DNA of 55,435 nt from positions 1-55,435 of the IMG/VR virus record IMGVR_UViG_3300042934_000351, one strand, 5' to 3'. The translations under genes were made by a program, and so were the position numbers. Source of the DNA: a virus. Lineage: Duplodnaviria > Caudoviricetes. The notes under the pieces are model-generated. The model saw only the letters and a program-made list of their open reading frames with translations, searched no databases and had not been told where the DNA came from. The first letter of the stretch is position 1; every line of letters starts with the position of its first letter. Shown here piece by piece: positions 1 through 28,151 of this stretch.

Positions 1-127
1 TGCTTCCGGGTTCGGAATGTGCTGCATCTTCTCGCTGGGGCTCCACGGGTCCCGCTCGAACGTGGTACGTACCACGTCGGAGCCGTCGCACCAGTAGCGT
101 CGCGGCGGCTCGAACTTGACGTCGACC
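1..127. repeat. Terminal direct repeat, copy 1 (probable assembly overlap of a circular or circularly permuted genome)
   Basis: 1-127 is identical to 55309-55435. 127 is a common maximal assembler k-mer, and an ORF reads through the junction. Confidence 0.95.
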
Positions 128-189
128 TGCCACTCGTGCTGGTCGTGTGCGTGCTCCGTGAAGCAGTGAAGCGGGTTGCGGTCAGTCAT
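1..189 (-). CDS. 5' part of the DUF6378-like gene that continues across the junction into 54826-55308
   Basis: ATG at 189 overlaps the end of whiB (ATGACTGA). It reads MTDRNPLHCFTEHAHDQHEWQVDVKFEPPRRYWCDGSDVVRTTFERDPW, in frame with ORF 54826..55383. Confidence 0.8.
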   Translation of the reverse strand, partial: MTDRNPLHCFTEHAHDQHEWQVDVKFEPPRRYWCDGSDVVRTTFERDPWSPSEKMQHIPNPEA

Positions 190-514
190 TGGTTCCATCC
201 TTCTTCTTGGTCTGTTCGTCCAGCACCTTCTGCAGTGCTTCGCGTTCCTTCGGGTTGAGGCCTCCGTACATACCGAAGCGGTACGTCTTCTGCCCTTCTT
301 CTTTTGGCTTCTCCTTAGCCATGACAAACGCCAGGCACTTGAGCCTGACGGAGCAATGCTTCTCGCAGAACTCCTTGGCGTCAGCCATCTCGCGCTTAGT
401 CTCGGGGAAGAACTGTTCAAGGTCCTTCCCCACGCAGGCGCTCTTGTCCATCCACTCATGCTTGAGTGGAGGTTCGAAGCCGTCGGCTCTGTCTACATAG
501 AGACGAGTGACCAC
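182..514 (-). CDS. whiB: WhiB-family Fe-S transcription factor
   Basis: W..SAC...D.EQFFPE...AKEFCEKHC.VR.KCL...FGMYGGLNPKER: four Cys plus a G(I/V)WGG-like turn. Confidence 0.9.
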   Translation of the reverse strand: MVTRLYVDRADGFEPPLKHEWMDKSACVGKDLEQFFPETKREMADAKEFCEKHCSVRLKCLAFVMAKEKPKEEGQKTYRFGMYGGLNPKEREALQKVLDEQTKKKDGTND

Positions 515-1038
515 GGCTCTCCTTCCACATTGTCGAGGATGAACTGATACAGGATCTCGTTGAGGACCGGGATGCTGATCCCGACCTTGAGCGCCACCCG
601 AGAGGCGCTCACGAGGTCTGCGTGGTTGGTGCTCTCGTTGAAGCGAGCGACACCGAACAGCTTGAGCATGTCGCGCGTCACCACGTTCTTGATGCCCGTG
701 TTGTCGACGACCATGCTACCAGGCATGAGCTTGTGTGTCTTGTCCACCATGTACAGCATGTCTTGGTCCTGCCGCACGTTGTTACCGCGCTGGCGATAGC
801 CCTCGACTCCACTGAACGTGGGTGCGTTGCTCTCCTCTTGCTTGAGGAAGAGCGGCAGACCGATGGTGTAGGCAGGGTCCAGCTCCGTGATGGCCCTGGT
901 CTTCTCGTTGCGACGCGGAACGTCAGCCCACACCTGGTGTCCTACGCTCCACGTCTTCTCCCTGGAGTCGAAGCGGAGCGCCACGAGTCCAGTGTCCTTG
1001 ATACCGGGGTCCACCCCGATGAGTGTCATCTTGGTCAT
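493..1038 (-). CDS. RuvC-like Holliday junction resolvase
   Basis: N-terminal IGVDPG..DTG, central VEGY, C-terminal HADLVSA. ATG at 1038 follows AGGAG. Confidence 0.8.
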   Translation of the reverse strand: MTKMTLIGVDPGIKDTGLVALRFDSREKTWSVGHQVWADVPRRNEKTRAITELDPAYTIGLPLFLKQEESNAPTFSGVEGYRQRGNNVRQDQDMLYMVDKTHKLMPGSMVVDNTGIKNVVTRDMLKLFGVARFNESTNHADLVSASRVALKVGISIPVLNEILYQFILDNVEGEPWSLVSM

Positions 1039-1052
1039 GATTCTCCTTGGTC

Positions 1053-1088
1053 CAGTGGCGGGGAGGGAGTCACCACTCCCCGCCACTG
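1053..1088. terminator. 13-bp intergenic stem-loop between the polymerase and resolvase genes, no U-tract
   Basis: CAGTGGCGGGGAG / CTCCCCGCCACTG. Confidence 0.5.
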
Positions 1089-1092
1089 TAGC

Positions 1093-3345
1093 CTATTTGA
1101 TGTAGCGGTACGCCGACTTGACGTCCACTGCGAGGGGAAAGTCCTTGAGCACGGTGTAGCTCATGTTCTTCCGAACGAGGTCCATGACCTCTTCCTTGGT
1201 CTTGTTGCTCGTGGGCTGCCAGTCCACGTTGAGCTCATCATGGAACTGTCCCATGATAGGAGCGTCACGGACGGTCTGCATGTCACGCCGCAGACCTCCG
1301 AGGCTGTCGAAGAACATCTCTCGACACAGCGACTGGGTGAAGATGCCCGCGAGCTTCCCACCATAGATGCTGTAGTACGTCTCCTTCTTCGTCTTCGGGT
1401 GAATGTAGGTTGCAACCCACAGGTCTCCGTTGAGCCGCTCCGCAGGCTTGTAGTAGCAGAGCTTGTCTCCACGGAAATAGCATCCGTGTACGAAGCGCGT
1501 GACGTATGGAGTACCGTCAGGCAGCAGGAGTTGGAGGCACAGCGACACCGAGCCGGGGTGCTGTGCTGCCATGCTCTCGACCTGGAAGGGCGTCGAGCGA
1601 GCGATCATGCCGTGCCCGATCTGGACCTGCAAGGGCGTGTTGCCTCGCACAGAGTCCTTGAGCAGGTCATCGAGCGTACGCCAGAACGCCACGATGTTCG
1701 GGTTCGCCGCACGCCAGTTCGACACGTCCTCCAGCGCCGTCTCGATCGTGACGCTGAATCCCAGACGGAACATGAAGTCCTGCACCGCTGCTGCCGATGC
1801 CTGGTACCCACAGCTCAGCTCCGAGTACTTACCTCGGGGTCGCTGAGCAGGGGTGACGTCGTCATAATCGACGTTGAAGTACTTCGAAGCGAGTACCTTA
1901 TACACGTCCTTACCCTCACGATAGGCGTCGAGCTTCCACTCTTCGCCTGCCAGGTAAGCGAGACCTCGTGACTCAACTGCAGAGAAGTCTCCGACGATGA
2001 TCTCTCCCTGAGGATGACGAGCAGTGAACACCTGCCGAAGCTGGCCTGCCATGTCACCGTTGGACCACGGCTCCTGGAAGTCGTAGACCGTCGAGATGTC
2101 CTTGACATACTCGTTACCCTCCTCGTCCTTCATCATCTTGAGCTTGCCGAGGTTCTGCATCTGCACGCCCCGACCTGTGGTACGGAACGTCTGACCAGCA
2201 CCGACGTGCATGTACTGGTCACGGAGGATGTCATCATCCGACACGAGGTCGAGGATCTTCGGCAGCTTGCTGAGCGTGCTGCCTCCGATTTCCTGCTTGG
2301 TTTCCAGCAGAGACTGGACCTCACGCAGACGACCGACCTGACGGAGAGTCTCAGGCGTGAGAGTCATCAGAGCCTCATCGTCCCAGACCCAGCTGTCACC
2401 ATCCATTCGCATGGGCAGGACGTTGATGTCGTCCTTCTGGTTCTTGCTGATGACCTCGGCGATCTGCTTGCGCACCTTCTCCAGTGCGATGGGCAGATGG
2501 TACTTGTCCAGGCTCCCGACCTTGAAGCCACGCTCCTCACAGTAGCGCTTGAGCTGAGCAGGCGAGTTGAAGTTGATCTCGTCTCCTGTCTCAGTGAGGA
2601 ACACACGCTTGGCGATGATGTTGTTCGCCCACGCCCGCTGCTTCATCTTGAGAATGAGCGGACGATCGATGTGCCAGCCCGCCTGGTTCTGCTCCCACGT
2701 CGACTGCTCGTCGTAGGCCTCGTTGATGAGGAGAAGCGGATCGAACAGGTCGAGGATGCGCTTGGCGGTGAGACGAATCTCACGACTGCCCTTCGCATCC
2801 ATCTCGCAGTACTTGATGAACAGCTTCCACAGGTCCATGTGCCCGTGCTTCTCGATGAGCTCAGGTGTGGGGCCGTCCGGGTACTTCTCGTTCGGCACAC
2901 AGAACAGCATGACGAGGTCGTTGCCTTCCTCCAGCTTGTGGCTGTTGGTCAGCTGTCGTGACGCCACGATGAGCTTGGACTCCGCGCCGAGACAGCGTGC
3001 GTCCACTGCACTGTCCTCGAACCGGAACGGGTCGAAGTCCGGCAGGAGCCAGTGTGTCACGGCACGCTCGAACGGGGCGTTGTGCGCCATGATCGGAGCC
3101 TTGTCGTGGTCTGTCAGCCAGCCCATGAAGTGCGGCGTCACGTCTAGGATTGAGCGCGCCTCTGCAACACCGTGTTCCCAGATGGTCTTGAACACCCAGT
3201 CGTATGTGTGCTCTCCCTCATCGGTCGCCACACTGGCCAGGAGAATCTTGAACTCCGGGTCAGCGACGTAGTTCGCCAGGCCCCGCACCGGCAGGTTGGT
3301 GCGGGACCAGGTCTCGTAGTCGAGACCGCTCGTCTCAGATGTCAT
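1093..3345 (-). CDS. polA: Family A DNA polymerase with 3'-5' exonuclease domain
   Basis: Exo I LDYET, Exo II HNAPFE, Exo III YCEMD. Motif A GDFSAVESR, motif B RPRGKYSELSCGY, motif C FHDEL. Confidence 0.95.
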   Translation of the reverse strand: MTSETSGLDYETWSRTNLPVRGLANYVADPEFKILLASVATDEGEHTYDWVFKTIWEHGVAEARSILDVTPHFMGWLTDHDKAPIMAHNAPFERAVTHWLLPDFDPFRFEDSAVDARCLGAESKLIVASRQLTNSHKLEEGNDLVMLFCVPNEKYPDGPTPELIEKHGHMDLWKLFIKYCEMDAKGSREIRLTAKRILDLFDPLLLINEAYDEQSTWEQNQAGWHIDRPLILKMKQRAWANNIIAKRVFLTETGDEINFNSPAQLKRYCEERGFKVGSLDKYHLPIALEKVRKQIAEVISKNQKDDINVLPMRMDGDSWVWDDEALMTLTPETLRQVGRLREVQSLLETKQEIGGSTLSKLPKILDLVSDDDILRDQYMHVGAGQTFRTTGRGVQMQNLGKLKMMKDEEGNEYVKDISTVYDFQEPWSNGDMAGQLRQVFTARHPQGEIIVGDFSAVESRGLAYLAGEEWKLDAYREGKDVYKVLASKYFNVDYDDVTPAQRPRGKYSELSCGYQASAAAVQDFMFRLGFSVTIETALEDVSNWRAANPNIVAFWRTLDDLLKDSVRGNTPLQVQIGHGMIARSTPFQVESMAAQHPGSVSLCLQLLLPDGTPYVTRFVHGCYFRGDKLCYYKPAERLNGDLWVATYIHPKTKKETYYSIYGGKLAGIFTQSLCREMFFDSLGGLRRDMQTVRDAPIMGQFHDELNVDWQPTSNKTKEEVMDLVRKNMSYTVLKDFPLAVDVKSAYRYIK

Positions 3346-13592: not shown

Positions 13593-13703
13593 ATCGTCAT
13601 TTCCTCGTTTGGTTGTGGGTCTCGTCACTGTCCAGTGACGCAGGCGCAATAAGCTAGAACTGAGACATGGACGTGCATTATTGTTCGTCTATTGTCGTTA
13701 GAT

Positions 13704-13735
13704 AAAAAGAAACAGAGCTAGGCTCTGTCCCTTTT
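13704..13735. terminator. Bidirectional terminator-like hairpin ending the 13749 gene
   Basis: AAAAAGAA-ACAGAGC-TAG-GCTCTGT-CCCTTTT. Confidence 0.6.
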
Positions 13736-13748
13736 AGCCGATGCCGTG

Positions 13749-14093: not shown

Positions 14094-14520
14094 TGTGACT
14101 CCTAGTGTCTAGTGTAGTACCTTAGTTAGTACCGATTAACCTATTTGATTTGTGTAGCCTTGGGCTACTTGTTTGTGACGTTAAAGTCACTTATTTACTA
14201 CTATATACATAGTAGGGGGGTATAGTGTGTTGTTATTGTTTAATTGTATAATATCGATCTGCTCCGAAAGAAATTCCAAATTCTTGTAGCCAGGTTGCTA
14301 CAGACCCATGTAACACATGGAAACGAGGATAGTCTCCTCTCGACCTCCCGATTTAGCCAAAACCGGTACAGGCTACTGGGCTAGTCTCCAGGTCTGGAGG
14401 CTTGTCTCCCGGCAGCTCCCGAAAGCGGCCAGAACGCGGTGCGCGCAGCCCGGTTAGCCACATGCTCCAGAAGATCGTGATCCACGGCGAAACGCGGCGG
14501 CCAGCGGATGGGGTGCCGGG

Positions 14521-14531
14521 CGGGGTAGAAT
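14521..14531 (+). promoter_or_regulatory. Putative promoter CGGGGTAGAAT for the giant gene
   Basis: The identical 11-mer occurs at 44884-44894; both precede operon starts. Confidence 0.6.
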
Positions 14532-14561
14532 TAGAGCGTTGCCCCTCATGCTCTCGGAAAG

Positions 14562-17500
14562 TTGGTCCTCGTGGCTCGCGACTGGTCCTCGTTCGGCGGT
14601 ACGAGCAACGACGACGCCCAGGATGTTGCGCCCGCGAAGGGAACCGACTGGTCGCGCTTCGGCGGTACGGGAGTCAGCAACAAGCCGTGGGAGCAGGGTG
14701 TCGGCTGGCAGGCCGGTGGCCAGATGGGCTCCACGGCCAACGCCTTCGACAACGAGTTCTACGACAAGTGGAACCAGGACATCGAGAAGGCTCAGAAGGA
14801 GAACCAGCTTCTCGACCTGTACGACAAGAACCGCAAGTTCACTGGCATCGTCACCCGCGACGACGCAAAGCACGGTGTCAAGTTCGGTGACGTCTATCGA
14901 GACGGCGAGAAGCAGTTCAACATGCTCGACGACGCGGACATCCCGCGCGCTGAAGCGTACCAGATGCTCGCCCGTGTCACGCTCAGCGACGATGAGCTGG
15001 CTCACGCGCAGAACCAGGACCGTCTCGAAGAGATGGTCGAGGACAAGCGACGCGTCAGTGAGAACGACGCGCGTAAGGGCCGCTCAGCCAAGGCGTTCGA
15101 CGACAAGGTGCAGTCCCGGCAGGAGGAGTTCGTCGCCGGTCAGGGTGACGAGGCGCTCATTGTCGGTGCCAGCGCGGGAGGCGCCGCAGCTGCTCTTGGT
15201 ATCGCCGCCACCGCTGCAGCAGCAACTGGTGTAGGCCTCCCGGTTGCTGCACTGCTCGGTATCGGCGCACTTGGTGTCGGCATCGGTGCTACCGGTGGGC
15301 TCATGAACAAGGACCTGCTCAGCGAGAACGCCGCTCGACAGCAGATTCTCATCGAGGAAGCGAACCGGCGCAAGGACGGTGCCGGAGTCGCTCAGTTCCT
15401 TCGGAGCTTCGGTGAGGTCTACGGCCAGTCGATCCAGCCTGCTACCAACATCGTCATGGGTGGTCAGGACCTCATCGCGGGTGGAGGGAAGTGGAACAAT
15501 GAGTCGGACTGGTACGCCACGGACCCCGAAACCGGAGAGTCTCTTCGGCACGGCTTCTGGGACGCTGCTCGGTTCGGGGCAGGCGCTGTCGACGCTTTTG
15601 GAAGCTCAGCCGGAGCAGGTCGAATCGCGTACGTGGGAAGCATCGGAGCTTCCCTACTGGGCCAGGGCACACAGCTCGGGTACCAGGGCGAGATCTTCAA
15701 CGACCGGTCCGGGGAGTTTCAGAGTATCTACACCAACGAGCAGGGCGAAGCGGACCCGTTCCGCGCCGCCAGCGCGTGGGGAGCGTTCGGCATCGACGCC
15801 GTCCAGTCCCTCGGAGTGCAGGGGATGCTCTCATCTTCGATTCGGCGAGGTCAGGGAACCACTGGTCTGGCCAACGAGAGAGTCACAGCTGGTGGTCGGT
15901 CGTTCACGCTTGACGCCGATGGAAGAGCTACAGGTCGAGCTGGCTTCGATGTATCCTTCCTGGCTCCTTCTGAGGCCTTCCGAGGTGTCACAGCTGCAAG
16001 CCTTCTCCGACTCAAGAACCGCGGCAATGTCGTAACCGCAGACGAGCTCTACCGTGCCGTCCGGAACATCGAGAACAAGGCTGGTGCTGGCTGGGGCGCG
16101 ACTCTGACGACCGGCCTCGCGGAAGGCTACGAGGAAGGCGTGCAGGCCCTGCTCAACCAGTGGGCGACCGGTGAAGAGTTCGACCTCGACGAGATCGTTT
16201 CCGGCGCGACGCAGGGTCTGAGCGCAGGTCTCGGTATGGGTGCTGCAGGCGCGCTCATGGCGAGGGGTGGAGACAAGAGGCTCCGCGACCAGGCCAATGC
16301 TGCCCGCGTCGTCACTGCTCGCCCGGACGAGATGGATGCTCTCAAGCCCATCTCGGACGAAGAGTGGAGCAACATGACGGACACGCAGAAGCGCGTGGCC
16401 GCCAACCTCAACACGGTCGAGACCGCGGCCATGCAGACCGCGCTCGGCAACGTGAGTCTCCAACAGGCGAAGACGATCCTGCTCAAGGACCCTGCTGCTC
16501 AGCAGCGCCTGGACATCGCGCGCATAGCGCTCAGCGAAGCAGAGATGCGGAACGCTGCTCCCAACACCAAGTCCTACATGCGCATCACAGCGTTCGAGGA
16601 CACGAAGATTCCTGGCGACAAGGTCCAGGCCTCGTTCGCTCGTGTCGGTGAGCTCATCGAGGACCAGCGCGTGGCCCTGGAGCTCATGGCTCGTGGCGGC
16701 GCGGCTGACCAGCAGATCGACCCCGAGACCGTGCAGATGGCCGGAGAGGCCGTCGCCGAGCTCGACCAGCTGGTGCCCTGGATGCAGAACCAGATGGTCG
16801 CGTTCTCTCGAAGCAACCGTCGCGAGCGCGCATTCATCATGGACCAGATCAATGCGGTGCTGGACCACTGGGGCTCGGGCACGCCGGTCGACACGAACCT
16901 CAGCCTCCCGGAAAACCTCGTCACGACGGACCCCGCGCTGGCTCTGAGCCGTGCTTACGCGGTCAGCATCAACTTCGCTCGTGACCCGATCGACCAGAAC
17001 ATCTCGTTCCAGCTGCTCGTCCCCACAGTCTCGCAGACGATGACTGAGATGAACGCGAACCAGACGATTCAGGTCTCGTACTCCATCCTCGACGCGATCG
17101 GCGGAGACTTCGACGGTGACCGTATCCGGTCCGTCCAGCGTCTCGCCACGAGCCCTGCCGAGTTCCGCCGTGCTCGTTCGGGTCAGCGCTCTCTCATGAG
17201 CGACCGGACCAGTGCCATCGCTGAGCGCCACTTCGAAGAGGCCTGGCTCGACAACTACCGCCAGGCAGCACAGTCGCAGCAGATGCAGGACCTTCTCCTG
17301 CGCACACGCGCGAACGTGCGCTTCGCCATTCGTGATCAGGTCGACGCCGACCCCATCCTGCAGCAATACATCTCTCAGGCCTTCGCCCAGATCGAAACGG
17401 GGTCGAAGACAGCGATCAAGGACTTCGTGACTGCCGTCATGAAGGACACTCGCATTGCACCGAGGCTGCTTGCTAAGGGAGCCGACGGCCTGTTCAACGT

Positions 17501-20500
17501 TCCGGAGAGGCTCAACCGCCTCTTCAGCAATGCGATGGCGGACTTCAGTCAGCGACTCAGTGTCGTGACGGCTCCCGACCCCATCGTGTACGATGTCAAG
17601 GACCCCATCCCCATGAAGCAGGGTGGGCCTGTCATTCGTGAGCGGCGCGCGGTAACGGCTGGGCGCACCATGTTCCAGGAGAGCCCGGCAGCTCAGATCT
17701 TCCGGATCTTCCAGGAACTTCGTTACTCGCCGCTCCGAACCCCGGTGGAGGCACGCCACCTCGTCGACCGGGAAGAGCCTCTCCTGGCCGACCTGCAGGC
17801 TCTGTACCTGCAGATCGGCCAGGGTGAGGTTGAGAGTGTTGTCGAAGCGGCGTACGCCGACTCCGAGGTCAACGCTCGCGTGATCGCTTGGACGCAGCAG
17901 ATGTCCGACGAGAGCGCTCGTCAGGGTGAGCGCATCCCCGTGGCGGTCCTGGCCTCGATGGCTGTGCCTCACTTCGGTCAGGACGGTCGCTTCGACGGCT
18001 ACGTGACGCTGACGCAGTCCCTGCTGGAGCGCTCGATCGCCATCGACGAGTCCAAGTACGGGCCACTCATCTCGGGTGACCCGAACCTGCAGGCTCGCTT
18101 CACCAAGCTCCGTGAGATGACGAAGCCGCCTCGCTCGGACTCGAAGGCCCCGGTTCACAAGAAGCGTGCCGGTGCGGCGTTCGTGTATGTCTACGGCCAG
18201 ATGTCGGTCCGTGACCTGACCGAGGTCCACGGTTCGATCCTCAACGACCAGGCCACGATCGACGAGCTCTACCGCTCGTACCGTGACCAGGACTACCACG
18301 GTCGCCACTCGTGGATGAAGTCGGCTAAGACCAGTGGACAGTACCCCGAGTTCATTCGTGAGGGCGACCTGCCCTACACGGAAGAGACGGCACTCTCCGC
18401 AGGCGTGTCGCCCTACCGGGTGCTCATCGACTCCATCGAGGAAGCTGGAAACTTCGACCTGAGTGTCGACGAGAACGGTAACCCGACAGGTATCGTGGCT
18501 CGCCAGAGCGGGCAGGTCTCGACGGACATGCAGGCCATCGTGACGGAGATTCAGGAAGGCATCAGCCTCGCGGCTCTTCCTGAGAACCGAGAGCTCACGC
18601 TGGAGAACCTGCAGCTCTTCCTGGCTCAGAACCCTCAGATCAGCCAGGCAGTGATCGGCCTCGCGGCGTACGATCCCAAGATGGCAGCTGTGTTCGCTGA
18701 TCTCAACGCAGCAAACCCGCGCATGGCCCCCTGGCTGTACGAGGCCCTGCTCCTGCCGCCCAAGACGGCTGAGCTGAACATCCTGATGAACACGGCGATC
18801 CTCTCGTACCGCGCCCTCGACATTGCCCCGCAAGAGGTGAGCGACCTTGACGATGACCCGACTGGTCACGTGCGTGACTACGAGAAGCTCGATGACCGCT
18901 TCCACCAGCTCTTCTTCAAGCTCGCCGCAGCAGACCGCTCTGGCATGCGTATCGCTCAACTGTTCCGTGACGTGGAATCGATCACGAACCGTGGTGGCGG
19001 GGTAGACGAGTTCATCCGTCTCCTGAACAACAAGTACCGTGGCAACCAGGCACCCTTCGTGGCCTGGTACCGTGACGTGGCGTCCTTCGACGCCTCTGCC
19101 ATGATGCGCTTCGGTGCGCCGGTCGCAGGTACCGAGCAGCGCAAGAGCATCAGCGAGCTCAAGATGGCAACCGCAGGTATCGCTCAGACGATCCAGAAGG
19201 AGCGCGAGGCTCAGGCCGCTGTGACGGACCTGCTGGCGAAGGCTCGTGAAGAGCGCCGTCAGGGAGTCGAGACGCAGAACGGCCCACGCATGGCGCTCCG
19301 CGAGGCCATCGAGTTCGTTCGTAAGTTCGAAATCGGCACCGGCCCGAACGAGATGATCGACTCGCTGACCGCCTCGCTCGAAACCTTCTTCGCGAAGGCG
19401 GCAGACAAGGGCGTCGGACCCGACGAGTTCGCCCCCGCCGCCGCTCTGGAAGTCATGTTCCATGAGTTCGCGATCAACTACTCTCGTGTGGACACCAGCA
19501 CCGGCACGATCGACCTGGATACGGTCATCCGTAACCCCTCGATCCTGCTGCGCGGTCCGATCACGATCATGGATAACTCGGGCAACGAGTTCGAATGGCT
19601 TCCTGAGGACCCCAGCCTCACGGACGAGGATGCAATCGAAGATCGCATCCTGACTCAGATCGAAGACTTTGTTCTCGACAACTGGGATGGGACGACTCGG
19701 GCTGACAACATGCCCCAACTGTCTCAGGGCGTCGCGCAGAGCGTGATCCGCCGCATGCTTGAGCCTTCGGTCTGGCAGATGACTGCTGACGGACGGGGCT
19801 TCCAGCAGAGGAGCCTGGTCGACGACAGCCTCGCAGGCATGCTCTCGCGCGACGCCTACAGCCGACTGTACGGTGACAACAACGCTCCGATCAGTGAGAG
19901 GGACAATGGCTCCATCATGGAGTGGCTGGCCCTCGTCAACTCGTCCAGTGGAGCGTACGGCGGCAACGTCGAGGTTCAGCGCTACCTGAGCAAGTACCTC
20001 GCTCACGCCGCGTCCAGCCTCAAGTCCCTCAGCCCCAGCGACGCGCAGAAGCTCGTGTCGCAGACGATGCACGAGCTCGGCTTCATGCTCCAGAAGGTTG
20101 GCGACATCGTCAACCAGTACGCAGACGACGACTGGAACCTGCCCGCTGACGAGACCGACCCTGACGGTCGCCCGGTCGACATCCTGACCAGTGCCCGTCT
20201 CTCGGCTCGTGCAGAGCGGTCTGACCGCTGGCTCCGGTCCCGCTTCGGGTCGAGCCTGCCGGACGGCACCACGCGAGAGATCGTGGACCAGTGGATGCTG
20301 CAGGAGATCAACGCCCTGACCTCAGCAGCAGTCAGCCAGAACCTGCGTGACACGTGGATGAAGGCTGTCCAGGACCAGGACGACGCAGCTGCTCGTGTCG
20401 CGATGGACCAGATCCAGTCGGCCCTCTCAGACAAGAGCATCCAGGACAAGGTCAGCGAGGCGCAGTTCGTTCGGGACGTGTACCTCAACAAGGAGCCTGT

Positions 20501-23500
20501 CAAGGCCCTCATCGAGATGTACGGCTACCCGCCCTCGGGCGATGGAGATGCCGCAGCAGCACGCCGTACCCTGCTCAGCAACTACGTCAAGACTCTCGGC
20601 ACAGACCTCACGAACCGTGCGCGCTGGGCCGACGCGTCGATCCACCGTGTCGCCAACGCTACTGGTCGGATGATCGGTCGTCGTGAGGACCCTGGCACCA
20701 CCGCCGCCTCGGAAGAGGACTGGAACGCTGTCTCGCGCGCGGTCATCTCCTACGAGCTCATCCGTCTCGCGGGCCAGCAGGGTGCGAGCGAGATTTCGGC
20801 GTCGGAGTTCCCGAAGCTGGAGTACAAGGGTGATGGCGAGCTCACCGACGAGCTGAAGAACTGGGACCCGAGCCAGCAGTACGTCTTCGATGACCTGCTC
20901 GACATCAAGAGCCCGATGGTTCGTGCGGCGGCGTACATCAGCCGTCAGTCGCGTCGTGACAACGACGTGACGATCGGCGACCTCGGTCGTACTCTCGACA
21001 CTGGTCTCGGTGACGAGTACCGCCTGCGGCAGTGGACGATCTTCATCCCGCCGACCGCCAAGGAAGCCAGCGACCGCTTCGACTCGAACGCCGCTCAGTA
21101 CCTCGTCGCGATGGCTGGTCAGCCGCAGGACGTGGTCGGTATCGCTGCCGCCACGCCGTCTGACCCCGACATCGGCAAGGTCGCTCAGGTCGGCGGGCTG
21201 GATGCCAACCTGGTGTCTGTCTCGCTCGCCAGCGAGAAGGGCAACACGCCTCCTCTGACGGTCGGTGACCTCGTCTTCGGCAACCCGTTCCGTTTGCGGC
21301 TCAACACCAGCAGAGTCGTCGGTGGCAAGGTGACTGCAGGCACGATGATGCCGCTGGCGAACCTGCATGGTCGCTTCGTCAAGACCTTCAAGGTTGGCGG
21401 CGTCGAGTACCCGATGGAGCACATCGCGGTCTTCCACGAGGCCAGCCAGTACTGGGTGCTTGACCTCGACCGTGCTCGCGAAGTCTTCAAGCACATGCCT
21501 CGGTCCACGGTCATCGAGATGGAGATCGTGACGCAGGCTGAGAAGATCGTCATCAAGGATGACACGGTCACAGGCCTCGCGCACAGCCAGTACTTCGACG
21601 GTGTCATCGACCCTGTCACCGACATCGACTCGCCTCGCTCTCTCATCGGCGCTCAGCTCAGCGCTGCAGGCGGCTCGGGTCGTATGGAGCAGCAGAACGC
21701 TCTGCAGGCGGCGAAGAAGGGCCTCCGCGCCCTGCTCCGTGCAGACCTGTTCTCTCGCCGCGAGCGGGCCGTGATGGAGACGCGCTGGGCAACAGACCTC
21801 TCCTACGTCCTGCACCTCAAGGCGATGGGTGTCGCTCAGAAGGGCAAGAACCTCGTCGAAAACGACTGGCGCTTCTACAACTCGTTCTACAAGACCGAGG
21901 AAGTCCGTCACTTCGTAGCTTCGGAAGAGGGTCTCTGGTCGGCAGAGCGCGTCATTCAGTGGCAGCGCGAGAACCCCGGCCTCCCGATCACGGATGAGAA
22001 GGGCCTCGGCCCGACCGCTCGCCTCGTCGTGCCGCCACAGGCCAAGCTCCGTGCCATGTACGGTGACTTCGGTCCCAGCGCGCGTACTCTGCCCAACGGC
22101 CAGGTGTGGACCGGAGACCCTGCAGACATCCCCGTCTTCGACGGTGTCACGACTGCTCGCCTCATCGAGCAGATTCCGGGTGTCTTCAACAAGACCAAGC
22201 TCAACCTGCTCGGTACTGAGTTCGGTGCACGTCGCCCCTTCACCAAGTACTCAGGCACTCGGTTCATGGACTACGAGAAGGTCAAGGAGAGGGCCAACCG
22301 TCTCGTCGTCCGTGACCAGAAGCGTGCACGCCTCGACGCTGACCGTCAGACGAGCCTGACCTTCAACGCCGCAGAGGTGTCGAAGCCCGGTATCGACCTG
22401 CTGAACAAGAGTATTCGTCTCAGCCCGATCTTCGACTGGCGTCGTTACGGCATCCCGATCGATGCCAAGACCGACCCTGGCACGCAGTTCATGGCAGCAC
22501 GTGCAGCAGCAGACCTCACGGCCTCTATGAACCGCGACGGTCGGAAGGTCGTCCTGGAGTTCCGCGAGGTCGACACATCGCGCACGCCTGGCGATGGAGT
22601 CCTGACCGCAGCAACGTGGGGCGACACCCGCGTTCCGGGTCTCGAAGCCGGTCCTGGCGACCTGCTCGTGGTCGATGTCGACTCCTGGACCGACGAGCAG
22701 CTCAACACGATCGCGTTCCGTCGTCTGGAGCAGTTCATGGAGAGCGGCGCGGACATCTTCCTCGCCACGACCGAGAGCACCACGAACCTCGGCATCCTCT
22801 CGCGCTACATTCAGCAGAGCCAGCGCTACGAGCAGATTCCAGGTTCGCCGAACCACTTCCGTGAGCGTGACTACGCACAGCCCCGGAGTGCAGACATGGA
22901 GGCGCTGGCAACCACGCTGACGTCGACGAACCCCATCTCGGGCGAGAACAAGACCCTCCTGTTCCACGGCTTCAACGTGGACATGGACGAGAACACGGCC
23001 AAGGTCAAGGACCCGGAGTACTTCAAGAGCCGCGAAGTCGCGATCGTCACGAACATCGTTCCGTCTCGCACCTACCCGGGCTTCGCTCTGCCGAAGACCG
23101 CGAAGACGCAGACTCAGGTCGTCCGCAAGGTCGCTGAGCTCACGATCAACCGTCCTGACTGGATGACGGACAGCGAGCACCGTGCCGTCACCCGTCTGAA
23201 CGACAAGTACAACAAGATGCGCGGCGGCGGGGAGTTCCCGTCCGGCGAGCTCCGCAAGGGTGACTTCATCCCCCAGGTGAAGGCAAAGCCCAACGGTGAA
23301 ATCCAGATCTACTTCCACCGCTACAAGCACAAGGACGTGCCGTGGTCACAGGTACAGGACCAGCTCGAAAAGCAAGACGGGATCGCGCGTACGACCAAGA
23401 GTGTCGATGCGAACTTCACTGGCTTCGAGGGCGAGGTCACCAACCTGGAGGCCTCGACCAAGCACGGTGCCCGTGTACGCCTGCGTGTCTCGCTCGGAGT

Positions 23501-26500
23501 GCTGGGCGACAAGAAGCAGGTCGCCCTCGCTGGTATGAAGTACACCATCTCGTCGGGTACTGGCTACACGCCTACCACGCGGCTCACTCCCGATCGTGAC
23601 ATCGACCTTGAGTCGGACTACGCGAGCCTGAGCGGCAAGAACGCCTGGCAGGGAACGATGTACAACCACCGTTCGGCGATCGTCGCCTTCGGCTGGGACA
23701 TGCGCGGGAAGCTGCTGGAGGCCTTCCGAGAGGCGACCGGCAACGTCGACATGACGGATGCTCAGCTCCGTCAGATTCTGCAGGACTTCTCGCGTCGTGC
23801 CGAGAAGCTGCCCGCCTCGTACCTGCGCGAGATCATCAGCGATCGTGGCCAGCTGGCCAACATCATGTCGAACAACGGCTCGCCTGTCGACTTCAACCAG
23901 CCTGGTCCTCTCGCGGGCTACGTTGAAGCGACGCTCGTCTACCTGATGGGGGCCGAGACCGCGGGTCCGGGCGACAACCCTGTCAACCACATCATGGGTC
24001 CGTTCGGAGGGCTCGTGCAGGGGCCTTCCTTCATGGGCGCGACAGGCCAGGAGCTCCCTCGCCTCTTCACAGAGTACTTCGACAGCCTGCCGCCCACGCA
24101 CGAGACGCGCAAGGACATCATCGCCACGATGCAGCAGAAGCTGGGTCGTGACAAGAACGGGTACTACATTCTGAACCCGGACTTCACGATCACGGCTGTC
24201 ACGCTCAAGAACGGCAAGATCGTTCGCTCGGAGACCGGTCGTCTTCAGATCGCAGAGGTCAACAGTACGGGTGACAACCCGACCTTCGACCGCTTCGCTG
24301 AAGACTCTGCAGGCAAGTACGAAGACTGGTCGCCCCACACGGCGGCGCTCTCGACCACTGCTCTCGGCACCACGCTCGCCCGCTCGAAGGACCTGCTCAG
24401 CTCGATCTTCCGTACCGTGACCGCAGAGCAGGTCCCGGAGATCACTCAGGCAGGCAAGAGCGGCGCTTCGATCCTCGATACCATGATGGACATCGGCAGT
24501 ACGACCGACAACGGCGCGTACCGCTGGTCGATGGACACGCCGTCGCAGGAGTGGTACCGCCAGGTGTCGCGCAACCTCGGCTGGGCGTACCGCGTCCCTG
24601 TCGATCCTGCCAAGTGGGCGTACCCAGACGACGAGGCCGGTAAGCAGACCGACCGTGAGCGCAAGTGGGACGAAGGTGTCAAGGAGATTCTCTCGGTCCT
24701 GCACCTCAAGGAGAACCAGTCGAGCCTGGTGCACTACTGGGTTCGCCAGACCATCGGACAGTTCGGGGACAAGGACCCCGAGAGCAAGGATGGCGACGTC
24801 ACCTTCGACCTCGCCATGCAGGCTCTGGCCGACATCACTTTCAATGTCAAGGCAAACGTGCTCCCGGTCGTCGACGCCGACGTTCCGATGCTGCATCGTG
24901 ATGACCTCGCCGCGATCTTCGAGGCGAACCGTTCACACCCGAAGCCGTGGCTTCTCCGTGAAGGTGTTGACATCCACACGCCGGTCCTGCAGTCCAAGAC
25001 AGTCATTCCTTCCGACTGGTCGGGCTTCGTGCACGTTGCCCTCGGGGTTGCAGAGACCGGGCAACGCAACTTCGACGCTATGAACCTCACGGCTGTCGAT
25101 GGCCTCCTGCAGTCCTACGCTCTCGGTGAGGACGCTCTGCGCGGCCTGCCGATCAGCCGCTCCGACCTGGTCGAGGCGAAGCTGTGGGACCCGCAGACCT
25201 CGCGCATCGTGATGAGCATCGACCCTCGGAAGAACGCGTACGCCAAGGAGCCGTCCATCCTGGACCCCGCGACGGCCACGCTCAGCACCATGTTCGGAGT
25301 CCAGCGTCAGGGCTCCCGCTGGCAGGGCGCTCGTAACCTGTCTCCCGAGCGCCGTCGTCGTGACCAGTACCGTGCGCGCTACCGCCGTGAGCGCGGTCTC
25401 TCCACCCCGGTCGAGACCGGCGTGCGGAACTTCCGACAGACCGGCGCACAGTACGTCAACGAGTCCACGACCAAGAACGGTGTGGTCCTCGCAGTTCACG
25501 ACCTCCGACACTTCACTACGCTGTTCAACCCGTTCCTGTGGCTCGGTGCAGGTGTCGAGATGACTGTGCGTAACGTGCAGGATGACCTCATCGGAACGCT
25601 GATGGGCACGGCGACAGGCGGAGCCTCTCGCCTCAACCCGATCAACTGGAGCAAGGAAGGTCAGCTGCGTCTCGCACAGTTCGCCAACACCCGCAAGGCC
25701 CTCGCAGAGAATCCCGCCTTCGCGAGCATGATGTACGGCGACATGCAGTTCAAGGACCCGCACATTCGCCGTAACTTCGTCACGAAGTTCACGGGCTTCC
25801 TCGGTCGTTCTGGCGACTGGATGCAGGATCCTACGTACGGCCAGCCGCAGAACACGATGGCTCGTCGATACGTCGAGGCTGTGCTGGACTCGTTCTCCAG
25901 CACTCCCGGCGTGGAAGTCAGCGAAGCGGCCCTGCTCTACAACCTGGAGAAGGACCCTCAGTACGTCAAGAAGAACTTCGCCGACGCGCACCGGTCCGCC
26001 ACTGCTCGTGTAGCCAACATGCGTTCACTCAAGATGACCTCGCTCGGCCTCCTTCTTCGGAGTGTCTACGAGATTCCGGGGTCCTCGCAGAACGGCGGCG
26101 TGCGCATGTTCGGCGACCTGTTCCTCAAGACCCCTCTCATGTACAGCGGGTACCTGGCGAACGTAGCCACCAACATGCTTGGCCTCAACACCGCCAATAA
26201 CCTGATCCTGATGTACCTCAACGGGCGGCGCGCAGGCAAGTTCGCTCGCCGTGCTCTCGGGGAGGCGTACACGAAGGATGGTATCATCGACCTGTCGTCG
26301 ATGATTGACACGCTGGACCTGACCCGCTCGATGGTCGCAGACGGTATCTCGGTCTCGTCCCTGTTCATGGCAGCGGCGTTCGCAGGCTCGACAGGTATGG
26401 CCAGCGGTGAGGACGAGGAGGAGCGTCGTCGTCGCAAGGCTATGCAGTACCAGGGTGGCGGAATCATCTACGACCCCCGTCAGATCGAGAACGACTGGCG

Positions 26501-28151
26501 GTCGAGCGAGTCCCTGTACCTGGACCAGTGGCCCGCTCTCGCTCAGCTCCTGCAGGTCGCAGAGACTGGCGGCGTGCCTCACTGGATCATCAAGCAGTTC
26601 ACGTCGCCCTTCCTCGGCGTCGCTCGGGCGGTCGAGACCGGTAACATGGAGCACATTAAGTGGGGCTTCCAGGACGTTCTCGGCTCGATGCCCCTGTTCA
26701 ACGAGACGATGGCGATCGAGGCGTCGCAGACCTTCGACATGCTCACGGCCCAGGCTGACGAAGAGCAGTACAAGGGCACGGACTCCGCCTCCATGAAGGC
26801 TCTCGGATTCTTGACCAAGGCTGTCATGGCCTACGAGTCGATGGTGCTTGAGTCGTCCTTCGCCAACATGATCTACCAGCAGGCCGACAAGTACGACCGC
26901 GATCCCTTCGTCATCCCCGAGAAGATGGCTGACGGCTCCTACGTTCGCGATCGTATGGACGTGCCGCGTCCGACTCGTGCGCTGGAAGACTTCTACGACC
27001 CGGAGACCGGCGAACTCCTGTCGGCCTACGCGGGTCGGGACTGGTTCCAGAGTACGACGGCAGGCTTCACTGAGAACCGCGCAACGTTCGCGTTCCTCAT
27101 GAGTCTCGGTACAGGCCTCCAAGGCTCGCAGTACTGGCGTAACAACATGGTGGCGAAGACCCGTACCATCGACAAGGAAGAGATGTCGCTGGACAACGCG
27201 GCGTCACTGGCGATGGGCCTCTTCCAGTCTCAGGGCTTCGCAGACGACCTGACGCGTCTGGAGAACGGTGAGGGCATCGACCAGTCCTGGCTGCTCTCGA
27301 CCTACGCAGAGGATGGTTCTGAAGAGCTCACCACTCTCGGTGCAGAGGCCGTCATCCGAGGCGTCTGGAACGGCTCGGTCAAGCTGGGCGACAAGTCCCT
27401 CGAAGGCCTCTACATTCCTTACGAGATGCGCGAGCAGCTACAGGACATGTTCCTGGATCAGTTCACGCAGGAGGGCGTTGACCTCGGTCTCAGCCAGGAG
27501 GATGCAGTCAAGCGCGCCAAGCTCATCGGATACGGCCCGTATAACGATAGCAGCGTCCCCGGCCTGTTCGACGCAATCTGGACGGACGAGCTGTCCTACG
27601 TGAAGAGCAACCGGTACTACCAGCTCAACACGACCTACGTGAACGGCCCGGACGGTAAGCCGTGGGCGACGGCGGTTCAGCGTAACACCTTCTTGGGTGC
27701 TATGAGCTTCCTGACCCCGTACTACAACGATGAGACCGGTCGCGGCCTGCCCACAGACCAGGTCCTGAACTCTGTGGACTATGGCTCGAACCTCAACACT
27801 GGCCTCCGCGCTCTCGAAAAGACTGACGAATCGTGGGTCATCCCGACCCCCGAGGAAATCGGCGAGAGCATCGAGAAGGCGATCGAGAAGCTCGGTAACA
27901 AGAACTTCACGCAGAGCCCCACTTACGACCAGTACTCTGGGTACGGGCGTCGCGGGTACGGCGGTGGTGGCGGTGGTGGCGGTGGCCGCAACTACGCCAA
28001 CAACTCCCTGATGCCGTTCCTGAACGGTATGAAGGCTCCGTACCTCGACAACATCCCCCAGCTGTACATCAACAACATCAACCCGCGTCGCTCTGACATC
28101 AGGCGTGAACGGTTCTCCAGCGAGCGAGGAAGGCTGAACCAGTGGCAGTAA
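14562..28151 (+). CDS. Giant virion protein (4,529 aa), putative single-chain two-barrel virion RNA polymerase / ejection protein; start may be GTG 14571
   Basis: Uninterrupted 13.6-kb ORF. Beta'-like RDP (aa 807) and IQVSYSILDAIGGDFDGD (D849-D853). Beta-like GENKTLLFHGFNVDMDE (aa 2794) and VRLRVSLGVLGDKKQVALAGMKYTI (K2984-K2993). Hydrophobic N-terminal helices; no Cys seen. The CDS is certain; the function is inferred. Confidence 0.8.
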   Translation: MVLVARDWSSFGGTSNDDAQDVAPAKGTDWSRFGGTGVSNKPWEQGVGWQAGGQMGSTANAFDNEFYDKWNQDIEKAQKENQLLDLYDKNRKFTGIVTRDDAKHGVKFGDVYRDGEKQFNMLDDADIPRAEAYQMLARVTLSDDELAHAQNQDRLEEMVEDKRRVSENDARKGRSAKAFDDKVQSRQEEFVAGQGDEALIVGASAGGAAAALGIAATAAAATGVGLPVAALLGIGALGVGIGATGGLMNKDLLSENAARQQILIEEANRRKDGAGVAQFLRSFGEVYGQSIQPATNIVMGGQDLIAGGGKWNNESDWYATDPETGESLRHGFWDAARFGAGAVDAFGSSAGAGRIAYVGSIGASLLGQGTQLGYQGEIFNDRSGEFQSIYTNEQGEADPFRAASAWGAFGIDAVQSLGVQGMLSSSIRRGQGTTGLANERVTAGGRSFTLDADGRATGRAGFDVSFLAPSEAFRGVTAASLLRLKNRGNVVTADELYRAVRNIENKAGAGWGATLTTGLAEGYEEGVQALLNQWATGEEFDLDEIVSGATQGLSAGLGMGAAGALMARGGDKRLRDQANAARVVTARPDEMDALKPISDEEWSNMTDTQKRVAANLNTVETAAMQTALGNVSLQQAKTILLKDPAAQQRLDIARIALSEAEMRNAAPNTKSYMRITAFEDTKIPGDKVQASFARVGELIEDQRVALELMARGGAADQQIDPETVQMAGEAVAELDQLVPWMQNQMVAFSRSNRRERAFIMDQINAVLDHWGSGTPVDTNLSLPENLVTTDPALALSRAYAVSINFARDPIDQNISFQLLVPTVSQTMTEMNANQTIQVSYSILDAIGGDFDGDRIRSVQRLATSPAEFRRARSGQRSLMSDRTSAIAERHFEEAWLDNYRQAAQSQQMQDLLLRTRANVRFAIRDQVDADPILQQYISQAFAQIETGSKTAIKDFVTAVMKDTRIAPRLLAKGADGLFNVPERLNRLFSNAMADFSQRLSVVTAPDPIVYDVKDPIPMKQGGPVIRERRAVTAGRTMFQESPAAQIFRIFQELRYSPLRTPVEARHLVDREEPLLADLQALYLQIGQGEVESVVEAAYADSEVNARVIAWTQQMSDESARQGERIPVAVLASMAVPHFGQDGRFDGYVTLTQSLLERSIAIDESKYGPLISGDPNLQARFTKLREMTKPPRSDSKAPVHKKRAGAAFVYVYGQMSVRDLTEVHGSILNDQATIDELYRSYRDQDYHGRHSWMKSAKTSGQYPEFIREGDLPYTEETALSAGVSPYRVLIDSIEEAGNFDLSVDENGNPTGIVARQSGQVSTDMQAIVTEIQEGISLAALPENRELTLENLQLFLAQNPQISQAVIGLAAYDPKMAAVFADLNAANPRMAPWLYEALLLPPKTAELNILMNTAILSYRALDIAPQEVSDLDDDPTGHVRDYEKLDDRFHQLFFKLAAADRSGMRIAQLFRDVESITNRGGGVDEFIRLLNNKYRGNQAPFVAWYRDVASFDASAMMRFGAPVAGTEQRKSISELKMATAGIAQTIQKEREAQAAVTDLLAKAREERRQGVETQNGPRMALREAIEFVRKFEIGTGPNEMIDSLTASLETFFAKAADKGVGPDEFAPAAALEVMFHEFAINYSRVDTSTGTIDLDTVIRNPSILLRGPITIMDNSGNEFEWLPEDPSLTDEDAIEDRILTQIEDFVLDNWDGTTRADNMPQLSQGVAQSVIRRMLEPSVWQMTADGRGFQQRSLVDDSLAGMLSRDAYSRLYGDNNAPISERDNGSIMEWLALVNSSSGAYGGNVEVQRYLSKYLAHAASSLKSLSPSDAQKLVSQTMHELGFMLQKVGDIVNQYADDDWNLPADETDPDGRPVDILTSARLSARAERSDRWLRSRFGSSLPDGTTREIVDQWMLQEINALTSAAVSQNLRDTWMKAVQDQDDAAARVAMDQIQSALSDKSIQDKVSEAQFVRDVYLNKEPVKALIEMYGYPPSGDGDAAAARRTLLSNYVKTLGTDLTNRARWADASIHRVANATGRMIGRREDPGTTAASEEDWNAVSRAVISYELIRLAGQQGASEISASEFPKLEYKGDGELTDELKNWDPSQQYVFDDLLDIKSPMVRAAAYISRQSRRDNDVTIGDLGRTLDTGLGDEYRLRQWTIFIPPTAKEASDRFDSNAAQYLVAMAGQPQDVVGIAAATPSDPDIGKVAQVGGLDANLVSVSLASEKGNTPPLTVGDLVFGNPFRLRLNTSRVVGGKVTAGTMMPLANLHGRFVKTFKVGGVEYPMEHIAVFHEASQYWVLDLDRAREVFKHMPRSTVIEMEIVTQAEKIVIKDDTVTGLAHSQYFDGVIDPVTDIDSPRSLIGAQLSAAGGSGRMEQQNALQAAKKGLRALLRADLFSRRERAVMETRWATDLSYVLHLKAMGVAQKGKNLVENDWRFYNSFYKTEEVRHFVASEEGLWSAERVIQWQRENPGLPITDEKGLGPTARLVVPPQAKLRAMYGDFGPSARTLPNGQVWTGDPADIPVFDGVTTARLIEQIPGVFNKTKLNLLGTEFGARRPFTKYSGTRFMDYEKVKERANRLVVRDQKRARLDADRQTSLTFNAAEVSKPGIDLLNKSIRLSPIFDWRRYGIPIDAKTDPGTQFMAARAAADLTASMNRDGRKVVLEFREVDTSRTPGDGVLTAATWGDTRVPGLEAGPGDLLVVDVDSWTDEQLNTIAFRRLEQFMESGADIFLATTESTTNLGILSRYIQQSQRYEQIPGSPNHFRERDYAQPRSADMEALATTLTSTNPISGENKTLLFHGFNVDMDENTAKVKDPEYFKSREVAIVTNIVPSRTYPGFALPKTAKTQTQVVRKVAELTINRPDWMTDSEHRAVTRLNDKYNKMRGGGEFPSGELRKGDFIPQVKAKPNGEIQIYFHRYKHKDVPWSQVQDQLEKQDGIARTTKSVDANFTGFEGEVTNLEASTKHGARVRLRVSLGVLGDKKQVALAGMKYTISSGTGYTPTTRLTPDRDIDLESDYASLSGKNAWQGTMYNHRSAIVAFGWDMRGKLLEAFREATGNVDMTDAQLRQILQDFSRRAEKLPASYLREIISDRGQLANIMSNNGSPVDFNQPGPLAGYVEATLVYLMGAETAGPGDNPVNHIMGPFGGLVQGPSFMGATGQELPRLFTEYFDSLPPTHETRKDIIATMQQKLGRDKNGYYILNPDFTITAVTLKNGKIVRSETGRLQIAEVNSTGDNPTFDRFAEDSAGKYEDWSPHTAALSTTALGTTLARSKDLLSSIFRTVTAEQVPEITQAGKSGASILDTMMDIGSTTDNGAYRWSMDTPSQEWYRQVSRNLGWAYRVPVDPAKWAYPDDEAGKQTDRERKWDEGVKEILSVLHLKENQSSLVHYWVRQTIGQFGDKDPESKDGDVTFDLAMQALADITFNVKANVLPVVDADVPMLHRDDLAAIFEANRSHPKPWLLREGVDIHTPVLQSKTVIPSDWSGFVHVALGVAETGQRNFDAMNLTAVDGLLQSYALGEDALRGLPISRSDLVEAKLWDPQTSRIVMSIDPRKNAYAKEPSILDPATATLSTMFGVQRQGSRWQGARNLSPERRRRDQYRARYRRERGLSTPVETGVRNFRQTGAQYVNESTTKNGVVLAVHDLRHFTTLFNPFLWLGAGVEMTVRNVQDDLIGTLMGTATGGASRLNPINWSKEGQLRLAQFANTRKALAENPAFASMMYGDMQFKDPHIRRNFVTKFTGFLGRSGDWMQDPTYGQPQNTMARRYVEAVLDSFSSTPGVEVSEAALLYNLEKDPQYVKKNFADAHRSATARVANMRSLKMTSLGLLLRSVYEIPGSSQNGGVRMFGDLFLKTPLMYSGYLANVATNMLGLNTANNLILMYLNGRRAGKFARRALGEAYTKDGIIDLSSMIDTLDLTRSMVADGISVSSLFMAAAFAGSTGMASGEDEEERRRRKAMQYQGGGIIYDPRQIENDWRSSESLYLDQWPALAQLLQVAETGGVPHWIIKQFTSPFLGVARAVETGNMEHIKWGFQDVLGSMPLFNETMAIEASQTFDMLTAQADEEQYKGTDSASMKALGFLTKAVMAYESMVLESSFANMIYQQADKYDRDPFVIPEKMADGSYVRDRMDVPRPTRALEDFYDPETGELLSAYAGRDWFQSTTAGFTENRATFAFLMSLGTGLQGSQYWRNNMVAKTRTIDKEEMSLDNAASLAMGLFQSQGFADDLTRLENGEGIDQSWLLSTYAEDGSEELTTLGAEAVIRGVWNGSVKLGDKSLEGLYIPYEMREQLQDMFLDQFTQEGVDLGLSQEDAVKRAKLIGYGPYNDSSVPGLFDAIWTDELSYVKSNRYYQLNTTYVNGPDGKPWATAVQRNTFLGAMSFLTPYYNDETGRGLPTDQVLNSVDYGSNLNTGLRALEKTDESWVIPTPEEIGESIEKAIEKLGNKNFTQSPTYDQYSGYGRRGYGGGGGGGGGRNYANNSLMPFLNGMKAPYLDNIPQLYINNINPRRSDIRRERFSSERGRLNQWQ

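Follow-up and report, generated by a model that had tools for sequence, protein, structure and literature searches.

The virion RNA polymerase (RNAP) of phage N4 is a podophage protein of 3,500 amino acids (aa) with a T7-like single-subunit fold, and is injected to transcribe the early genes. Two-barrel RNAPs are carried by other phages. The gp66 protein of phi14:2, a crAss-like phage, is described as virion-packaged, with a DFDxD motif and rifampicin-resistant early transcription (10.1101/2020.03.07.982082), and gp96 of phage P23-45 is described as a tape measure protein of 5,002 aa that carries a virion RNAP in its N-terminal part and DFDGD at 779-783 (10.1101/2022.12.01.518664). In the account given in the latter paper, polymerases of the QDE-1, gp66 and P23-45 type have the order N-terminal domain, barrel B, connector and barrel A in a compact module. 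Eight residues are reported to be invariant across two-barrel RNAPs, namely R446, P448 and D479/D481/D483 of Rpb1 and D837, K979 and K987 of Rpb2 (PMC2919709). Here we describe a 55,435-base stretch of viral DNA (IMG/VR record IMGVR_UViG_3300042934_000351; the whole stretch is called the window) and in it a giant open reading frame (ORF) of 4,529 aa. A first-pass annotation, made from the sequence, had flagged positions 16570-17135 of the window as a beta'-like catalytic barrel with an intact DFDGD. We consider it likely that this segment is the beta'/Rpb1-type catalytic double-psi beta-barrel (DPBB) of a very divergent two-barrel RNAP, and that the same chain of this soil podophage's protein adds beta'-C-like and beta-like parts. 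Virion-associated two-barrel phage RNAPs are already known; the proposed single-chain architecture with beta' before beta, and the present phage group, are not among the known ones.

A candidate catalytic barrel in the giant ORF

The flagged segment is in frame with the giant ORF and corresponds to aa 670-858. The features in this part of the window are:

14562..28151, + strand: giant ORF, 4,529 aa, TTG start; contains every part listed in this text, heads the rightward structural gene block, with the portal-position ORF next to it downstream
16563..17141, + strand: predicted beta'-type DPBB (barrel A), aa 668-860, from AlphaFold2 model 1 and VIA-align
16635..16964, + strand: predicted helical insertion within barrel A, aa ~692-801; helices at model residues 253-362, low conservation at aa 701-800
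16980..16988, + strand: R807-D-P809, in register with beta' R425-x-P427, Rpb1 R446/P448 and phiKZ gp55 (HMMER alignment)
17106..17120, + strand: D849-F-D851-G852-D853, putative Mg-binding triad, in the loop between the helix at 840-846 and the strand at 854-857
17142..17564, + strand: post-barrel helical region, aa 861-1001, aligning with the beta'/Rpb1 segment downstream of the active-site barrel

The first-pass annotation had aligned QTIQVSYSILDAIGGDFDGD without gaps to a 20-residue segment of bacterial beta'. With the Escherichia coli beta' sequence translated from NC_000913.3, which contains that 20-mer, the ungapped alignment has 8 of 20 residues identical (I, Q, A and DFDGD). The positions given for DFDGD, nucleotides (nt) 17106-17120, are correct and correspond to aa 849-853, and the distance from R-x-P to the first Asp is, as had been stated, 42 residues in the window (from R807) versus 35 in beta' (from R425). 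All five of the barrel A invariant residues (the Arg, the Pro and three Asp) are present in the giant protein. From the amino-acid composition of the giant protein, 0.14 chance occurrences of D.DGD and 0.005 of DFDGD are calculated for its 4,529 aa. Because D.DGD is expected this often, the single motif is only mildly unusual and is not decisive. A second D.DGD (DIDGD) is found at 53731 on the - strand, in the DEAD/Helicase_C ORF 53627-54826, and was taken as chance.

Homologues were collected by exhaustive phmmer search using aa 440-1560 as the query. Note that a word-based search returned 3 close relatives only, and the exhaustive search was required to reach the wider family. This family comprises 136 proteins that each represent a 50% cluster. 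With few exceptions they are 4,400-4,900 aa long, and most are 19-32% identical to the window's giant protein. The core at aa 795-900 is contained in 125 of the 139 family proteins collected; the 14 without it are pieces of 116-800 aa and one N-terminally cut protein of 3,313 aa. R807, P809, D849, D851, G852, D853 and G874 are each kept in 125/125 of the proteins having the region, and these include the three aspartates on whose conservation the first-pass annotation depended. Residue 850 varies among the same 125 homologues (F 63, Y 32, H 22, N 4, W 2, R 1, T 1). Since the invariant residues are kept in 125/125 proteins at about 20-30% overall identity, the motif stands above chance. Judged from this conservation, the enzyme would be expected to be active.

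Model 1 was computed with AlphaFold2 for aa 440-1500 from a 40-row alignment (mean predicted local distance difference test score (pLDDT) 77.5; predicted template modelling score (pTM) 0.42). Means of pLDDT over 10-residue blocks of the barrel are 83-96. A DPBB is predicted at aa 668-860, in agreement with the fold that the first-pass annotation had proposed, and its top matches are RNAP largest subunits. The strands at aa 671-677 and 687-690 agree with the first barrel strands that had tentatively been placed in SYMRITAFEDTKIPGDKVQ; the helices at 692-801 correspond to the helical insert proposed there, and the barrel resumes at 803 with strands at aa 803-806, 816-823, 835-838 and 854-857. 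DFDGD is in the loop before the last strand. In VIA-align comparisons both with RNAP largest subunits and with a designed DPBB, barrel A covers model residues 229/230 to 421 and beyond.

When model 1 was searched against the Protein Data Bank (PDB) with Foldseek, the best 50 matches were all bacterial beta' chains, with expectation values (E) of 1.2e-4 to 2.7e-3 and template modelling scores (TM-scores) of 0.12-0.18. Alignment of the Foldseek candidates with VIA-align gave Z 11.7-12.9 over 199-258 aligned residues; the one exception was a row with 287 residues and a root mean square deviation of 24.6. Model residues 229..562 (aa 668-1001) align to 624..947 of Thermus thermophilus beta', to 346..661 of Rpb1, and to the corresponding segments in RPA1, vaccinia Rpo147 and the African swine fever virus (ASFV) subunit. 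A wide structure search of 48,161 PDB representatives was made independently of Foldseek. The top 12 of the 48,161 were all largest subunits of multisubunit RNAPs (Z 8.0-12.1), including those of AR9 and of phiKZ, the latter with 20% identity over 161 residues. Next came unrelated DPBB proteins, among them a designed DPBB (Z 7.2, 86/86 residues) and the N-domains of CDC48, VAT, NSF and PEX1. RDR2 (Z 6.5) and QDE-1 (Z 6.2) were matched over the barrel only.

No second barrel is seen in the model of aa 440-1500. According to its secondary-structure list, the part upstream of the barrel (aa 440-667) is helical except for three short strands at its N-terminal end. The order of QDE-1 and gp66, with barrel B before barrel A, was looked for and is not seen in this model; the beta-like region of the giant protein is ~2,100 aa downstream.

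A profile of aa 796-900 (21 sequences) was searched against PDB sequences. The top match is phiKZ gp55 (7ogp_A, a non-virion RNAP subunit) with E 0.0022, and its alignment spans R-x-P through DFDGD. Lower matches include AR9 beta' (E 0.08-0.09), RPA1 (0.66) and bacterial beta' chains (1.5-1.9), and RNAP largest subunits account for 14 of the 17 matches at E<=10. At the level of sequence, these values suggest a link to RNAPs that is marginal but specific. Searches with Pfam on the whole giant protein gave no RNAP family (RNA_pol_Rpb1_*, RNA_pol_Rpb2_*) at E<=1. The match to Pfam RNA_pol_Rpb1_2, for which the first-pass annotation had proposed a search, did not appear; the family profile did lead to an RNAP. 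Its reading of the segment as a beta'-like catalytic barrel is supported by the fold, by the conservation of the aspartates and by the aa 796-900 profile.

Parts resembling beta'-C and beta on the same chain

Because the full-length alignment showed a conserved Lys pair far downstream, aa 2060-3250 was modelled also (model 2; AlphaFold2, 33 rows, mean pLDDT 77.0, pTM 0.45). The features in this part are:

20976..22133, + strand: region like the C-terminal half of beta', aa ~2139-2524, from AlphaFold2 model 2 and VIA-align
22404..22871, + strand: predicted alpha/beta domain of Rossmann-like type, aa ~2615-2770, which includes D2700 and separates the beta'-C-like part from the beta-like part
22935..24275, + strand: beta/Rpb2-like region, aa ~2792-3238, candidate barrel B and hybrid-binding part, from Foldseek, VIA-align and BFVD
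23511..23540, + strand: K2984...K2993, near-invariant, candidate basic pair of barrel B

Residues 80/119..465 of model 2 (aa ~2139-2524) align to 1031/1084-1465 of T. thermophilus beta' with VIA-align Z 8.2-10.3; we take this range of beta' to hold the bridge helix and the trigger loop. In the wide search, the same part matched Mycobacterium tuberculosis beta' and the C-terminal halves of beta' from plastids and cyanobacteria (Z 9.5, 8.8 and 8.3), phiKZ 7ogp_D (7.3) and AR9 7s00_D (6.0). The best 50 Foldseek matches of model 2 in the PDB were all second-largest subunits of RNAPs (bacterial beta, archaeal B and ASFV; E 2e-4 to 5e-3), and residues 728/733..1179/1180 of the model (aa ~2792-3238) were aligned by the wide search to six Rpb2-type representatives with Z 4.8-6.0. 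All of the top 10 rows from the 48,161 were RNAP large subunits, five of the beta'-C type and five of the Rpb2 type. In BFVD, the family's own members came first, followed by RNAPs of giant viruses and jumbo phages. The domain at aa ~2615-2770 gave weak, generic matches of the Rossmann/SAM-methyltransferase type (Z 4.1-4.8); its D2700 is kept in 88/92 homologues. Since beta'-N, beta'-C-like and beta/Rpb2-like parts share one chain, the protein would be a single-chain RNAP with the order beta' then beta.

The lysine pair of Rpb2 is plausibly present as K2984/K2993. Position 2984 is K in 107, R in 3 and a gap in 3 of 113 homologues, K2993 is K in 112/113, and K3026 is kept in 113/113. The candidates for an acidic residue of barrel B are D2901 (91/113), E2810 (84/92) and D2700, none of them fully conserved. 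D2901 was set aside, being kept in only 91/113.

Several results weigh against an RNAP assignment and should be set beside those above. Both models have low pTM values (0.42 and 0.45), TM-scores to RNAP chains are only 0.10-0.18, and the model evidence consists of secondary-structure lists and alignment ranges. The Rpb2-type Z of 4.8-6.0 is modest, and according to the tool such a range can reflect a common arrangement. The K2984-K2993 spacing is 9, versus 8 for K979/K987 of Rpb2 (PMC2919709). A counterpart of the barrel B acidic residue (Rpb2 D837) was not identified among the conserved Asp and Glu residues, and no N-terminal half of beta was found in the giant protein. The ~1,100 aa that separate beta'-N from beta'-C are without assignment, as are the first ~660 and the last ~1,300 aa of the protein, which we count as a weakness. 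Searched as a whole, the giant protein has no relevant Pfam or PHROGs family. Three other family profiles led to no RNAP when searched against PDB sequences: that of aa 640-1000 yielded only coiled-coil noise, that of aa 2140-2530 only designed repeat proteins, and that of aa 2895-3065 had 0 matches at E<=10; the sequence support therefore amounts to one marginal E-value. Finally, virion packaging of the giant protein and its ejection with the DNA are argued from analogy, and its activity from conservation.

Genome setting and proposed role

The window resembles a whole podophage-like genome of the Burro/EK-like actinobacterial type. Genes for DNA polymerase A, a PD-(D/E)XK nuclease, a DEAD-type helicase and a primase-polymerase are found in its leftward block. 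In the rightward block, the giant ORF comes first, then the portal-position ORF, and then tail, endolysin and tail-fibre genes. The closest named relatives are the Microbacterium phages Burro, Arete, Araxxi and others and the Arthrobacter phage MissAmericana, with 25-30% protein identity over aa 501-1400; gp27 of Burro aligns with the giant protein from end to end at 31% identity. An alignment scan of loci with the DFDGD region found at least 8 loci, and one with the C-terminal region found 21 loci in viruses and 11 in metagenomes. Scans of 30 further ORFs of the window, 20 of them with Pfam and 10 with PHROGs, turned up no other RNAP family and no sigma family.

The portal-position ORF (28142-30163) has no PHROGs family. 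It starts 10 nt before the giant ORF's stop (28142-28151), and the same overlap is annotated in Burro and Akoni. Leftward and rightward blocks are separated by an AT-rich region of 1.7 kb (~12850-14560; 36-50% G+C versus ~60%). It contains 6 terminator-like hairpins versus 1.7 expected. Two inverted repeats, 13166-13194/13409-13437 and 13302-13317/14274-14289, also lie in this region, which is a candidate location for early promoters or the origin. Where the giant ORF begins, a short directly repeated sequence (14579-14603 / 14645-14669) encodes the peptide repeat DWSSFGGT / DWSRFGGT. Further into the N-terminal part, a Gly/Ala-rich hydrophobic stretch (15144-15311, aa ~195-250) is possibly membrane-inserting; two transmembrane domains near the N-terminus are described as predicted for Burro gp27 (Jacobs-Sera et al., PMC7302621). 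The opposite end of the protein is its best-conserved part:

26349..28148, + strand: C-terminal ~600 aa (aa ~3930-4529), best-conserved part of the giant protein by conservation profile

These ~600 aa contain a GEDEEERRRR run and a QLNTTY motif and have no Pfam match. In the ESM Atlas, aa 3750-4529 showed weak LPD38-like features only, to which Pfam gave no confirmation, and aa 1001-2139 yielded nothing usable. Further along the rightward block, a 657-aa ORF (34598-36571) has PHROG matches of the endolysin and metallo-endopeptidase type, and part of it resembles peptidase segments of tape measure or minor head proteins.

By analogy with crAss gp66 and P23-45 gp96, the giant protein is probably carried in the virion. 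For Burro, a virion protein of ~250 kDa has been reported and ascribed to gp27 (PMC7302621). Because of this virion protein, and because no other RNAP or sigma family was found in the 30 ORFs, a virion-carried early polymerase is the likeliest role. In such an enzyme, the beta'-type barrel would bind the catalytic Mg ion through D849, D851 and D853, with R807 and P809 beside the Mg as in Rpb1. The beta-like domain would supply basic residues contacting the nucleoside triphosphate and the RNA 3' end, and the region of the bridge helix and trigger loop would come from the beta'-C-like part. The polymerase would be ejected with the DNA and would transcribe the first genes of the phage without need of the host's polymerase, like crAss gp66, P23-45 gp96 and the virion RNAPs of N4 and phiKZ. 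Note that aa 668-3238 (~2,570 residues) come near the mass of the ~250 kDa Burro band, which we regard as coincidence only.

The evidence concerns the motifs and the predicted fold alone. An active two-barrel nucleotidyl transferase could therefore have a task other than early transcription, such as making primers, copying RNA as QDE-1 and the RDR enzymes do, synthesizing DNA as PolD does, or transcribing middle or late genes from inside the cell. The place of the giant gene in the rightward structural block is compatible with this, and the barrels of RDR2 and QDE-1 are matched as well (Z 6.5 and 6.2). DNA-dependent multisubunit RNAPs are, however, matched more strongly and over greater lengths (Z 8-12 and about 160-290 residues, versus about 103-112 residues for RDR2 and QDE-1), the genome encodes its own DNA polymerase A and primase-polymerase, and the Burro homologue is reported to be present in virions (PMC7302621). 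No PolD chain is among the structural matches listed for model 1, which speaks neither for nor against a PolD-like task. On balance, we think such a task unlikely.

A structural protein of the ejection apparatus or internal core, in which the RNAP-derived fold is an inactive relic, would account for the many residues of the 4,529 without a polymerase assignment, which are most of them. It would also suit the hydrophobic Gly/Ala-rich stretch near the N-terminus, the concentration of conservation in the C-terminal ~600 aa and the lack of an identified barrel B acidic residue. A relic is disfavored because it would not be expected to keep the three aspartates, the Gly and the R-x-P (each 125/125) and the two lysines (110/113 as K or R, and 112/113) in a family of 20-30% identity, and we judge this reading to be quite improbable.

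Public records disagree on the name of the homologues (L006, 13510-26814; L007, 13339-26823): the GenBank record of MissAmericana and the RefSeq records of Arete and Araxxi have "tape measure protein", and GenBank records have "hypothetical protein". P23-45 gp96 is described as an example of a tape measure protein and an RNAP in one fusion (10.1101/2022.12.01.518664), so that a tape measure protein, perhaps with an added polymerase, has to be weighed here too. Neither Pfam nor PHROGs gave a tape-measure family in the giant protein, a 2026 announcement states that it has no similarity to any tape measure protein (PMC13069448), and the relatives are podoviruses (PMC7302621, PMC8281081); we give this explanation very little credence. 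That DFDGD is a chance occurrence or a Ca-binding-type acidic loop unrelated to polymerases, for which one might cite the 0.14 chance expectation of D.DGD and the DIDGD of the helicase ORF, is contradicted by the invariance of the motif (125/125), by the R-x-P in register upstream and by a predicted DPBB that matches RNAP largest subunits, and is scarcely credible.

Literature searches found no paper that calls the giant gene a polymerase; supplements of RNAP papers (e.g., the 23 family alignments of the P23-45 paper) or other papers might. Jacobs-Sera et al. (2020) describe the role of gp27 as unclear and exclude an N4-type polymerase (PMC7302621). The giant protein is of unknown function in PMC8281081 and in the 2025 announcement of KingKamren (PMC12022796), and in the 2026 announcement of TicTac its function "remains elusive" (PMC13069448). 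The gene (~13.5 kb) makes up a quarter of the genome of Burro and of the cluster EK phages, a group that teaching laboratories have repeatedly isolated. If the RNAP assignment is true, a function would be found for the largest gene known in actinobacteriophages, and the "tape measure protein" annotations in public records would be corrected. The Burro/EK-like phages would join the N4, crAss-like, phiKZ-like and P23-45-like phages in bringing their own transcriptase, with hosts that are culturable and harmless, and Actinobacteria would be the setting of a rifampicin-independent transcription system. The two-barrel architecture would be new (a single chain, beta' before beta, with a huge insertion splitting beta') and would bear on how frequently phages have captured and remodelled cellular-type RNAPs.

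Comparison with known polymerases

Multisubunit RNAPs (bacterial beta'/beta, Rpb1/Rpb2 and the split subunits of phiKZ and AR9) are the nearest in structure. The giant protein has the R-x-P and DFDGD of barrel A in the register of E. coli beta', its structural matches (Z 8-12.9) reach beyond the barrel, and beta'-C-like and Rpb2-like parts with two conserved lysines follow; phiKZ gp55 is the best profile match to aa 796-900. It differs from them in that beta' and then beta would be on one polypeptide instead of on separate subunits, in the ~110-aa helical insert within barrel A, in the ~1,100 residues between beta'-N and beta'-C, in having no detectable Pfam RNAP domain, and in the lysine spacing of 9 rather than 8. 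No counterpart of alpha or omega was identified, either in the giant protein or among the other ORFs scanned.

P23-45 gp96 is alike in being a giant protein (~4,500-5,000 aa for the two) in which DFDGD lies ~800 residues into the chain and the sequence otherwise shows no detectable similarity to RNAPs. It is described as a virion protein, with a proposal that the polymerase is delivered with the DNA (10.1101/2022.12.01.518664); for the window's protein we infer the virion location. In P23-45 gp96, barrel B and then barrel A are placed within about 1,100 residues (10.1101/2022.12.01.518664), whereas the beta-like part of the giant protein is ~2,100 residues downstream of barrel A. The window's phage also differs from P23-45 in being podovirus-like, without a long tail, as judged from its podovirus relatives.

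The clade of phi14:2 gp66, QDE-1 and the RDR enzymes shares with the giant protein a large size and a DFDxD-type motif, and an early-transcription role that is likely there would apply here by inference. In QDE-1 and RDR2, only about 103-112 barrel residues are matched, compared with about 160-290 residues at higher Z for the beta'/Rpb1 types. The structures of crAss gp66 and P23-45 gp96 are not among the matches listed for model 1, and a relationship to them is possible.

The N4 virion RNAP is likewise a giant podophage protein bearing a polymerase, a comparison also made in PMC7302621, but its polymerase fold is unrelated. Burro gp27 is reported there to have no similarity or shared motifs with it (Jacobs-Sera et al., PMC7302621), and Pfam gave no T7-type RNA_pol family in the giant protein. 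Taking these systems together, we put at about an even chance that the giant family is a distinct RNAP lineage, in which beta' and beta are fused into one injected chain without alpha or omega, a ~1,100-aa insertion splits beta', a Rossmann-like domain lies between the beta' and beta parts, and the structure is nearer to multisubunit RNAPs than to the QDE-1/crAss clade.

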